64,000 nt of DNA, taken from contig JAQWOJ010000024.1 of assembly GCA_029245905.1 (NCBI GenBank), positions 6,114 to 70,113 on the forward strand. Direction: 5' to 3'. The notes beneath the pieces are model-generated. The model was not told the origin of the DNA, ran no database searches, and was given only the letters and a program-made list of their open reading frames with translations. Positions within the stretch are counted from its first letter, which is position 1. The number at the start of each line of letters is the position of its first letter. Origin of the DNA: Gammaproteobacteria bacterium (GTDB taxonomy: Bacteria; Pseudomonadota; Gammaproteobacteria; Pseudomonadales; Pseudohongiellaceae). Below, one piece after another: positions 13,436-14,860 of this stretch. The position numbers and the translations under genes were made by a program.

Positions 13436-14860
13436 TTGAATAAGCCAAAAGAAAACATCACTCTTTACGTTGACCTAGACGGTACGTTAATCAAAACAGA
13501 CCTACTGTTTGAATCATTATTAGCGTTGTTAAAGAAAAACATCTTATACGTCTTCGCCATATTATTTTGGTCGATCAAAGGAAGAGCCAATCTGAAATTT
13601 GAAGTGGCCAGAAAGACCGATCTAGCAGCTTCTGATTTACCTCTAAACACAGAGTTTTATAAATATCTGCAAGAACAAAGAGAAACCGGAAGACAGATGG
13701 TGCTTATATCTGGCTCGAATCAGAGGTCAGCAAATACGGTGGGAGAACATATAGGGCTGTTTGATGCAATATACGGTAGTGATCGATCTACAAACCTCAA
13801 AGCGAAACAGAAACTGCTAAAAATAAAAGAATTGTCCGAGGGACGCGACTTCGCATATGCAGGAAATTCAGCTGACGATATACTTGTTTGGCGCTCGGCA
13901 GCCCAAGTAATTATGGTTAATTGTCACGAGAGAATTTCAAAATTAGTCCGCGACACAGACAAACTTGAATTTGACCACCCACCAAAAGCATCAATAAAGC
14001 TACTCCAAGCGATTCGACCTCATCAGTGGTTAAAGAATTTGCTCGTATTCGTGCCGCTGATTTTATCCCATCAAATCCTTGACCTGAAATTACTAGCTTC
14101 ACTAATCATAACTTTTATAAGCTTTTCCTTGTGTGCTTCAAGCGTTTATATCTTGAATGATTTAGTAGACATCATCGATGATAGGCGTCATTGGAATAAA
14201 CACAAGCGACCTTTTGCTGCGGGAGATTTACCGTTAATCGCTGGATTTATAGCCGGGCCTCTTATGTTTATCGCAGGTGCGACTATTGCACTTACACTGC
14301 CGATAAACTTCCAGTTTATTTTCCTTCTATATTGGCTCGTTAACTTATTGTACAGTTTTTATCTCAAGCAACTTTTTATAGTCGACGTTGCTATATTATC
14401 TTTACTCTATACCCTAAGGATAATCGCTGGCGCTGAGGCGATTTATATAGAGGCAACAACTTGGCTGCTAGGGTTTTCTTTTGCCTTATTTTTTGGACTA
14501 GCTATAGTAAAAAGGGTCACTGAGTTACTCAATGTTATTTCCGACGGCGGATACGTCATCCCAGGCAGGGCCTACAAACGAAATCAATTGAGGATGTTAT
14601 CTACGGCCGGGATTTTTTCTAGCGCAATCGCAATTAGTATATTCGCGCTTTATATCTCGGCGCCAGAAACCACTGAGCTTTATGATTCGCCCTTGATACT
14701 ATGGACCATCCTTCCTCTTTTGATTTGCTTGTTCTATAGAATTTGGAAAAGCGCACTTACTTTTAGGATGAACGAAGACCCTGTCCTTTTCGCATTAACC
14801 GATCGAATCGGACAGCTAATCGTATTAGTTTGCGGCTTTTTGCTTTGGCTGGCTTCGTAA
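13436..14860 (+). CDS. Fusion of a HAD-type phosphatase domain and a UbiA-family polyprenyl-phosphate phosphoribosyltransferase domain
   Basis: 474 aa with a TTG start 3 nt after the previous stop. The HAD motifs are DLDGTL (motif I) and AGNSADD (motif IV). The multi-TM UbiA domain carries NDLVDIIDDRRHWNKHKRPFAAG (NDxxDxxxD). Confidence 0.8.
   Translation: MNKPKENITLYVDLDGTLIKTDLLFESLLALLKKNILYVFAILFWSIKGRANLKFEVARKTDLAASDLPLNTEFYKYLQEQRETGRQMVLISGSNQRSANTVGEHIGLFDAIYGSDRSTNLKAKQKLLKIKELSEGRDFAYAGNSADDILVWRSAAQVIMVNCHERISKLVRDTDKLEFDHPPKASIKLLQAIRPHQWLKNLLVFVPLILSHQILDLKLLASLIITFISFSLCASSVYILNDLVDIIDDRRHWNKHKRPFAAGDLPLIAGFIAGPLMFIAGATIALTLPINFQFIFLLYWLVNLLYSFYLKQLFIVDVAILSLLYTLRIIAGAEAIYIEATTWLLGFSFALFFGLAIVKRVTELLNVISDGGYVIPGRAYKRNQLRMLSTAGIFSSAIAISIFALYISAPETTELYDSPLILWTILPLLICLFYRIWKSALTFRMNEDPVLFALTDRIGQLIVLVCGFLLWLAS

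Follow-up and report, generated by a model that had tools for sequence, protein, structure and literature searches.

A HAD phosphatase domain fused to a UbiA-type phosphoribosyltransferase in a predicted arabinofuranose-donor operon of marine gammaproteobacteria

The Operon and Its Products

The window analysed here, a stretch of 64,000 nucleotides from a gammaproteobacterial MAG, carries a four-gene operon in the order gtrA-dprE1-dprE2-HAD/ubiA, with intergenic gaps of 0, 27, and 3 nt and with the fused gene in last place. No strong terminator on the + strand was found within the four genes. The first of them (10934..11359, +) encodes a small membrane protein of the GtrA family (NCBIfam NF037976 gtrA_1, 150 bits, cut-off 50); its stop abuts the start of dprE1, and its position is kept in syntenic loci. 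This protein is likely the counterpart of mycobacterial Rv3789 and a candidate flippase for a lipid-linked pentose. On its other side, gtrA is adjoined by a divergently transcribed gene of the inositol-monophosphatase (IMPase) family (10025-10903, -).

The second and third genes encode a pair of predicted redox enzymes. Matches in the PDB, in NCBIfam, and to Pfam FAD_binding_4 identify the product of the second (11360..12670, +) as a DprE1-like FAD oxidase, a putative polyprenyl-P-ribose 2'-oxidase, the best PDB match of which is mycobacterial DprE1 (4aut, E 9.2e-79, residues 2-434); its score of 400 bits against NCBIfam NF053785 lies under the equivalog cut-off of 500. The third (12698..13432, +) encodes a DprE2-like short-chain dehydrogenase, a putative 2'-keto reductase, assigned from the PDB and NCBIfam. 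Its sole PDB match at E <= 1e-20 is DprE2 (21gq_C, E 7.3e-29, full length), and it scores 278 bits against NF005489 (cut-off 267) and 181 bits against NF053786. Searches of the PDB returned no characterised relative closer than mycobacterial DprE1 and DprE2 for either protein.

The last gene (13436..14860, +) is open for 474 codons and encodes a predicted bifunctional HAD phosphoribose phosphatase/UbiA-type polyprenyl-phosphate 5-phosphoribosyltransferase, an assignment drawn from NF006088, an AlphaFold2 model, and Foldseek. Its start is a TTG placed 3 nt past the dprE2 stop; a 95%-identical homologue has ATG at the equivalent position.

Architecture of the Fused Protein

The original prediction had read this gene as a fusion of a HAD phosphatase to a UbiA domain, and the fusion is confirmed by family models and by the predicted structure alike. 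NCBIfam NF006088, with a curated cut-off of 351 bits, covers residues 4-474 of 474 at 537 bits (E 3.8e-161), a score far above chance expectation. Pfam places HAD (PF12710) at residues 13-149 with 28 bits (cut-off 27) and UbiA (PF01040) at residues 213-438 with 51.7 bits (cut-off 34.2). In the full-length AlphaFold2 model (pLDDT 88.4, pTM 0.81) a helically capped, Rossmann-like core is followed by about nine long helices, and the Foldseek matches of this model are 8j8j and phosphoserine phosphatases. The strings quoted in the prediction were all found: residues 13-18 read DLDGTL, residues 142-148 AGNSADD, and residues 241-263 NDLVDIIDDRRHWNKHKRPFAAG. The protein is thereby assigned, from its sequence, to the HAD-fused polyprenyl-P phosphoribosyltransferase family (NF006088/ORF15-type PRP-PPPRS), a fusion design that is common in bacteria, and is predicted to be a bifunctional enzyme of the inner membrane.

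The HAD domain occupies residues about 9-180 (13460..13975, +) and carries a C1-type helical cap, with cap helices at residues 23-34, 38-47 (a hydrophobic one), and 50-60 in the model. A model of this domain alone (pLDDT 93.1) aligns by VIA-align with 3fvv (Z 16.5), 4as2 (Z 15.2), and phosphoserine phosphatases (Z about 14), and Foldseek matches it to solved HAD phosphatases with E 1e-7 and probability 1.0, which suggests a phosphoserine-phosphatase-type, C1-capped HAD-IB fold. Searches of the domain alone against the PDB by phmmer and by profile gave no significant match, only insignificant ones to P-type ATPases, and none of the HAD fold matches listed is labelled a phosphoribose phosphatase.

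Conservation of the catalytic residues was judged in an alignment of 191 family members, in which the columns of D13, D15, and T17 were scored in 182. Motif I (D13-L-D15-G-T17; 13472..13486, +), which is read directly from the sequence and holds the predicted nucleophile and general acid/base aspartates, is invariant in A1 and A2, and across the family D13 is kept in 181/182, D15 in 180/182, and T17 in 181/182. Motif II is Ser92 (13709..13711, +), Ser or Thr in all 191; motif III is Lys126 (13811..13813, +), Lys in 189 of the 191. In motif IV (G143-N144-S-A-D-D148; 13862..13879, +) Gly143 is found in 190/191 and Asp148 in 191/191. This motif opens with Asn144 and not with the usual Asp, but since 145 of the 191 members have Asn at that position (and 45 have Asp), the substitution is a trait of the family. 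All four HAD motifs are intact, and they are conserved across the 191 members.

The remainder of the protein, residues 186-474 (13991..14857, +), forms a UbiA-type phosphoribosyltransferase domain with about nine transmembrane helices in the model. Its phmmer match to M. tuberculosis DPPRS (8j8j) has E 5.9e-24 over residues 186-464, and Foldseek superposes it on the same structure with a TM-score of 0.81, normalised to 8j8j; DPPRS itself forms a trimer. The first Asp-rich motif, N241-D242-xx-D245-xxx-D249 (14156..14182, +), a predicted Mg2+/PRPP site, is invariant in 190-191 of the 191 members. In the second cytoplasmic-loop motif, K359-R360-xx-E363 (14510..14524, +), Lys359 and Arg360 are kept in 191/191 and Glu363 in 189/191. 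From the model we infer that the TM2-3 and TM6-7 catalytic loops share the cytoplasmic side with the N-terminal HAD domain.

Genomic Distribution of the Fusion and of PAP2

The original prediction rested in part on an operon that lacks a PAP2 gene, and Pfam scans of all neighbours indeed found none. A scan of the whole source genome for PAP2 (PF01569) likewise found none, an absence that is weak on its own because the MAG is 86% complete. A PAP2 gene is present in 8/30 same-genus genomes as against 29/30 for the DprE1 orthologue; PAP2 is not inherited along with the pathway. The fused gene itself occurs in 23/24 same-genus genomes, and together with DprE1/DprE2 it is a core feature of this marine gammaproteobacterial genus (Pseudohongiella, in the GTDB sense).

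Among 81 related loci that were read, the fused gene adjoins a DprE1-like gene in 50. These 50 loci fall into two gene orders and are spread over several phyla, with Stenotrophomonas maltophilia among their hosts. The fused enzyme family is also found at loci of a ribofuranose type that have no DprE genes and in which GT-C genes are adjacent; it passes readily between loci of the ribofuranose and arabinofuranose types. The tree of the family is a quick IQ-TREE result. A relative without the HAD domain was seen in another genome of the same order (G034), at the end of a contig, where the neighbourhood is uninformative with regard to PAP2.

Biochemical Precedent

The most direct guide to function is ORF15 of Citrobacter youngae O1, which with PRPP and farnesyl-P yields farnesyl-P-ribofuranose, as confirmed by NMR (Kelly et al. 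2024, PMC11127046). Its HAD mutant D18A accumulates farnesyl-P-ribose-5-P, and its residues N247, D248, D251, and D255 are needed for activity (PMC11127046). The D18A mutant is leaky, with residual product remaining (PMC11127046); the HAD step can be replaced in part by other phosphatases or by spontaneous loss, and partial substitution for a phosphatase is seen with rhizobial noeN as well (PMC5080398).

The proposal that the HAD domain stands in for Rv3807c gains support from motif conservation, from the distribution of PAP2, and from the behaviour of ORF15 D18A (PMC11127046). By analogy, the HAD domain most likely covers the job of this mycobacterial PAP2 enzyme. Channelling of the intermediate, which the original prediction also raised, would be a hypothetical further feature. 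The idea is not new, as the same design was biochemically characterised in 2024 (Kelly et al., PMC11127046). What is added here is that the fused enzyme with DprE1/DprE2 is core to a marine genus in which a PAP2 gene is absent from most genomes; where an Rv3807c-type gene is absent, the fused HAD domain would, on the C. youngae precedent, cover the 5'-dephosphorylation.

Proposed Pathway and Its Alternatives

It is very probable, taking the proposal as a whole, that the fused enzyme acts as a phosphoribosyltransferase and a 5'-phosphatase feeding a DprE1/DprE2 arabinofuranose-donor pathway. The architecture, the intact motifs, the operon layout, and the homology to the mycobacterial enzymes are directly established at this locus; the two enzymatic activities are established for ORF15, of the same architecture, and would hold here by analogy. 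At the cytoplasmic face of the membrane, the UbiA-type domain would move 5-phosphoribose from PRPP onto polyprenyl phosphate, the carrier in a Gram-negative host presumably being undecaprenyl phosphate. The HAD domain would then remove the 5'-phosphate via an aspartyl-phosphate on D13, giving polyprenyl-P-beta-D-ribofuranose, after which the DprE1-like oxidase and the DprE2-like reductase would epimerise C2' to yield, as the probable end product, polyprenyl-P-D-arabinofuranose. The GtrA-family protein may flip this donor into the periplasm, where a GT-C encoded elsewhere in the genome would add arabinofuranose to a putative envelope glycan acceptor. The activities of the fused enzyme would thus constitute the first steps toward a lipid-linked arabinose sugar donor.

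An operon with a different end product, whether another lipid-linked pentose, a keto-sugar, or chiefly polyprenyl-P-ribofuranose as the final donor, is distinctly unlikely. The DprE1-like score under the equivalog cut-off would be in keeping with such a product, as would the use of the same fused family at DprE-less ribofuranose-type loci with adjacent GT-C genes and the diversion of the donor to xylofuranose by other epimerases (Kelly et al. 2024, PMC11127046). Arabinofuranose is nevertheless favored by the full-length alignments to mycobacterial DprE1 and DprE2, the closest characterised relatives found, and by the published survey of Kelly et al., in which DprE1/DprE2 homologues accompany arabinofuranose-containing glycans (PMC11127046).

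A second alternative, about as unlikely, leaves the pathway in place but takes the 5'-dephosphorylation away from the HAD domain. This domain would then have a regulatory role or a different phosphate ester as its substrate, and the work would fall to a separate enzyme not of the PAP2 type, such as the IMPase-family gene product (10025-10903, -). In its favor, most Pseudohongiellaceae-clade loci have that gene beside gtrA, the residual product in ORF15 D18A implies that other phosphatases can act, and motif IV has Asn at its first position. The adjacency, however, is part of a larger syntenic block (MMPL, a PHM-like gene, S-formylglutathione hydrolase, SRAP, and tannase), and outside the Pseudohongiellaceae clade it is missing from every locus with the fused gene and DprE1/E2. 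The strong conservation of the HAD catalytic residues over 191 members and the build-up of the 5-phosphate intermediate that does occur in ORF15 D18A also argue for the HAD domain as the phosphatase.

That the fused protein is instead an aromatic prenyltransferase joined to an unrelated phosphatase, as the name "4-hydroxybenzoate polyprenyltransferase" in some source annotations and a Pfam assignment reaching only the level of the UbiA superfamily might suggest, is scarcely credible given that DPPRS is the closest characterised relative in sequence and fold, that the protein scores 107-142 bits with the decaprenyl-phosphate phosphoribosyltransferase models of NCBIfam versus 15-40 bits with those of other UbiA subfamilies, and that dprE1, dprE2, and gtrA are its neighbours. 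Under the favored reading, in which transferase and phosphatase both serve an arabinofuranose donor, annotation as a bifunctional polyprenyl-phosphate phosphoribosyltransferase/phosphatase would be preferable to "UbiA prenyltransferase".

The Transferase and the Acceptor

A scan of window ORFs over 510-25027 turned up no GT-C gene. Elsewhere in the genome are two PMT_2-like GT-C candidates, C97:36440-38380 and C28:6861-8369, the latter within an LPS-core cluster. Both are genus-wide (23/24 and 24/24) and nearly absent outside the genus, a distribution like that of the operon, so that co-occurrence is unable to separate the two. A partner was also sought by tblastn against the source genome, with every multi-TM protein of 330 aa or more encoded at the 81 related loci as a query; no GT-C was matched, the only matches being syntenic MMPL-type and other unrelated transporters. 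By this search neither candidate is a homologue of the GT-Cs that adjoin the fused gene in other genomes, and sequence searches of both against the PDB gave nothing useful.

A genus-wide operon set apart from any glycan locus could point to a constitutive and hitherto undescribed D-arabinofuranose decoration of the envelope, perhaps of LPS core or lipid A through the C28:6861-8369 GT-C, with the HAD fusion conferring independence from PAP2; this scenario is tentative and on balance doubtful. Pseudohongiella is flagged all the same as a genus in which D-arabinofuranose might be sought in Gram-negative envelope glycans.

Comparison with Known Systems

Several characterised systems share parts of this arrangement. 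ORF15 (PRP-PPPRS) has the same plan, a HAD phosphoribose-phosphatase at the N-terminus and a UbiA-type polyprenyl-P phosphoribosyltransferase at the C-terminus. In motif I the nucleophile is D18 in ORF15 and D13 here, N247/D248/D251/D255 correspond to N241/D242/D245/D249, and R366/E369 to R360/E363; because the numbers of the catalytic residues are offset by 5-6, the two proteins are collinear. The proposed homology rests on architecture, this collinear numbering, and a shared relation to DPPRS rather than on a direct alignment. The settings differ, as ORF15 lies inside an O-antigen cluster, adjoined by a MATE-type flippase and a GT136 GT-C, in a "three-component" pentofuranose side-chain system that delivers ribofuranose, or xylofuranose via an SDR epimerase, whereas the partners here are a GtrA-type protein and DprE1/DprE2. 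The candidate flippase is accordingly of the Rv3789/GtrA type here and of the MATE/ArnEF-like type in the three-component prototype.

With phosphoserine-phosphatase-type HAD-IB enzymes (1f5s/1l7p, 3fvv, and 4as2) the HAD domain shares its fold and four catalytic motifs, although likeness in sequence is negligible; here the domain is fused to a membrane enzyme, and its proposed substrate is a membrane-anchored phosphosugar.

Two Gram-negative systems offer DprE1/DprE2/UbiA modules that lead to a lipid-linked D-arabinofuranose donor, the pilin cluster of Pseudomonas (para)aeruginosa PA7/Pa5196 (PsPA7_6245-6251) and the rhizobial noeC(N)HOP operon for arabinosylation of Nod factors. Both have separate phosphatase genes (6245, an Rv3807c homologue, in the former and noeN, a candidate, in the latter), and loss of either only lowers arabinosylation. 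In each the transferase is encoded nearby, TfpW for the pilin acceptor of PA7 and NoeP for the Nod factor of rhizobia.

The mycobacterial decaprenyl-phospho-arabinose pathway comprises the DPPRS Rv3806c, the PAP2 phosphatase Rv3807c, DprE1 (Rv3790), DprE2 (Rv3791), and the GtrA-family protein Rv3789. Its chemistry and order of steps are those proposed here, and the UbiA, DprE1, DprE2, and GtrA-family proteins of the operon are homologous to their mycobacterial counterparts. The lipid is presumably C55 here as against C50 in mycobacteria, and the acceptor would be neither arabinogalactan nor lipoarabinomannan. The principal difference lies in the phosphatase step, which is assigned to a separate PAP2 protein in mycobacteria and is predicted to fall to the fused HAD domain here.

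Fused Gene and Operon Context

The gene at 13436-14860 (+ strand) comprises 474 open codons beginning with TTG, 3 nt past the stop of the upstream gene; a metagenome homologue 95% identical to it has ATG at the equivalent position. The strings quoted in the original prediction of a HAD phosphatase fused to a UbiA-type phosphoribosyltransferase are all found in the protein (DLDGTL spans residues 13-18, AGNSADD residues 142-148, and NDLVDIIDDRRHWNKHKRPFAAG residues 241-263). In Pfam, HAD domain PF12710 scores 28 bits (cut-off 27) over residues 13-149, and UbiA domain PF01040 scores 51.7 bits (cut-off 34.2) over residues 213-438. 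Because the curated NCBIfam model NF006088 (PRK08238) covers residues 4-474 with 537 bits, well above its cut-off of 351, the fusion is real and belongs to an already recognized family.

The fused gene is the fourth and last of a tightly packed + strand set, preceded by genes for a GtrA-family protein (10934-11359; NF037976, 150 bits), a DprE1-like FAD oxidase (11360-12670), whose best PDB match is mycobacterial DprE1 over the full length (E 9.2e-79), and a DprE2-like SDR (12698-13432), for which DprE2 is the only PDB match below 1e-20 (E 7.3e-29). The successive intergenic gaps are 0, 27, and 3 nt, and a consensus scan found no convincing + strand terminator within the set. The genes on either side have no connection with glycan synthesis (inositol-monophosphatase-family, haem/copper oxygenase, S-formylglutathione hydrolase, SRAP, tannase, and PQQ dehydrogenases), and Pfam and NCBIfam profiles detected neither PAP2 nor GT-C genes among them, bearing out the claim that no PAP2 gene sits in the operon. 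The inositol-monophosphatase-family gene (10025-10903, - strand) diverges from gtrA with only ~30 nt between the called starts, one of which is probably overcalled; this pairing is kept across the Pseudohongiellaceae clade and not elsewhere.

Structure and Active Sites

An AlphaFold2 model of the full-length protein, built from an alignment of 21 sequences, is confident (pLDDT 88.4, pTM 0.81) and comprises a Rossmann-like core that carries three cap helices inserted past motif I (residues ~9-180), followed by about nine long helices (residues ~186-474). The membrane part superposes on the Mycobacterium tuberculosis decaprenyl-phosphate phosphoribosyltransferase 8j8j with a target-normalized Foldseek TM-score of 0.81, and phmmer relates the two at E 5.9e-24. 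The HAD domain is too divergent for any significant sequence match in the PDB. Modeled separately (pLDDT 93.1), it resembles C1-capped HAD-IB phosphatases, with a Foldseek E of 1e-7 and VIA-align Z-scores of 16.5 to 3fvv, 15.2 to 4as2 (Pseudomonas aeruginosa phosphorylcholine phosphatase), and ~14 to phosphoserine phosphatases.

A fused HAD domain that had lost its catalytic function is very unlikely, given the conservation of its motifs in a 191-member family alignment. In motif I, counted over 182 members, Asp-13 and Thr-17 are each kept in 181 and Asp-15 in 180; Ser/Thr-92 of motif II and Asp-148 of motif IV are kept in all 191, and Lys-126 of motif III in 189. At position 144 (13865-13867), the first of motif IV, 145 of the 191 sequences have Asn and 45 have Asp, an unusual family-wide variant of this Mg2+-binding motif. 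Among the UbiA residues, Asn-241, Asp-242, Asp-245, Asp-249, Arg-250, Lys-359, Arg-360, and Glu-363 are invariant or almost so. Being N-terminal and soluble, the HAD domain would lie in the cytoplasm, and the order of the helices in the model would then place both conserved UbiA loops, past TM2 and past TM6, on that same side. Both active sites would share one compartment, where PRPP is available.

Distribution of the Pathway

The closest homologues of the fused gene come from Pseudohongiellaceae and Pseudomonadales metagenome-assembled genomes (MAGs), and the gene is present in 23 of 24 same-genus genomes. By its own terms, the original prediction would fall if a separate PAP2 phosphatase were always co-inherited with the pathway and required. 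Such co-inheritance is not seen: 29 of 30 same-genus genomes carry a DprE1 orthologue that is full-length and at least 49% identical, whereas any PAP2 domain (PF01569) is found in only 8 of the 30 and in 6 of the 19 of high quality. The 2.2-Mb MAG that holds the window (106 contigs, 86% complete) yields no PF01569 match. In two complete same-genus genomes, G024 (L088:4204-8030) and G001 (L087:4582-7652), gtrA, dprE1, and dprE2 are intact and HAD-ubiA is gone from behind dprE2, where G024 keeps only a ~54-aa C-terminal remnant; in both, HAD-ubiA paralogues encoded at other sites are intact and presumably supply the epimerase pair.

The same MAG carries two PMT_2-like GT-C genes, either of which might encode the transferase that uses the lipid-linked donor, both genus-wide and neither resembling the GT-Cs beside the fused gene in other genomes. 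One, of 646 aa (C97:36440-38380, - strand), adjoins feoB. The other, of 502 aa and weakly PMT_2-like (C28:6861-8369, - strand), is a candidate transferase for the predicted arabinofuranose donor and occurs in 23 of 24 same-genus genomes. It lies inside an LPS-core-type cluster (C28:1721-8773, locus L004) that also holds a GT4, two WaaP/Kdo-kinase-family genes, a carbamoyltransferase, and an LpxL-like acyltransferase.

More broadly, the protein collection contains more than 3,000 homologues comparable in length, and in 50 of 81 related loci a DprE1-like gene is directly beside the fused gene. The order gtrA-dprE1-dprE2-fusion, with syntenic flanks, typifies the Pseudohongiellaceae clade, and fusion-(gtrA)-dprE1-dprE2 is found in Stenotrophomonas, Rhodobacterales, Phenylobacterium, a Chlorobiales MAG, and others. 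DprE genes are missing from the rest of the loci, which in the nearest relatives carry PMT_2-type GT-C genes beside the fusion. At six loci (L044, L045, L048, L050, L070, and L076; ~11430-12700) in Roseibium, Labrenzia, Aurantimonas, and one alphaproteobacterial MAG, a DprE1-like gene directly follows the fused gene and no DprE2 homologue is found at E < 1e-5; another reductase may complete the epimerization there.

In a quick maximum-likelihood tree, the window gene falls in a well supported clade of 36 rows, mostly named Pseudohongiellaceae or Pseudohongiella. Nested inside this DprE1-linked clade is a well supported seven-member subclade that is DprE-less and GT-C-linked, and DprE adjacency switches at least 10 times across the tree. 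Thus, the fused synthase is an entry module common to ribofuranose and arabinofuranose donors. The subclade (L009, L011, L013, L021, L022, L025, and L041; match at ~10001-11400 in each) appears to be a paralogue co-opted for a ribofuranose-type system; its HAD-ubiA genes neighbor two or three GT-C genes that are PMT_2-like, as well as a gene for a ~810-aa protein with 13-14 TM segments.

Comparison with Characterized Systems

The architecture and chemistry of this family of bifunctional enzymes, to which the window protein belongs, were established in 2024 with ORF15 of Citrobacter youngae O1, in which an N-terminal HAD "phosphoribose phosphatase" is fused to a UbiA-type polyprenyl-phosphate phosphoribosyltransferase (Kelly et al.; PMC11127046). 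ORF15 membranes supplied with PRPP and farnesyl phosphate gave farnesyl-phosphate-ribofuranose, identified by MS and NMR; the D18A variant gave the 5-phosphate species, although somewhat leakily, and changes at Asn-247, Asp-248, Asp-251, and Asp-255 abolished or lowered activity (PMC11127046). Numbering at these positions is 5-6 higher than for Asp-13, Asn-241, Asp-242, Asp-245, and Asp-249 of the window protein, which makes the two enzymes collinear. The D-to-N experiment proposed with the original prediction has in essence been done, on this prototype.

In mycobacteria an unrelated phosphatase, Rv3807c, performs the same step, and DprE1/DprE2 homologues are present in loci for arabinofuranose-containing glycans (PMC11127046). 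SI Fig. S11 of that study takes in S. maltophilia strains; at the S. maltophilia locus read here (L053), DprE1 and DprE2 come after the fused gene. A version with a separate phosphatase is represented by PsPA7_6245 of P. (para)aeruginosa and possibly by rhizobial noeN (PMC5080398). That the fused HAD domain takes the place of Rv3807c is supported by its intact conserved motifs, the lack of PAP2 co-inheritance, and the ORF15 D18A precedent, but this mechanism is already published; the main interest of the present system lies in a genus-wide, PAP2-independent operon for a predicted arabinofuranose donor in a marine gammaproteobacterial lineage.
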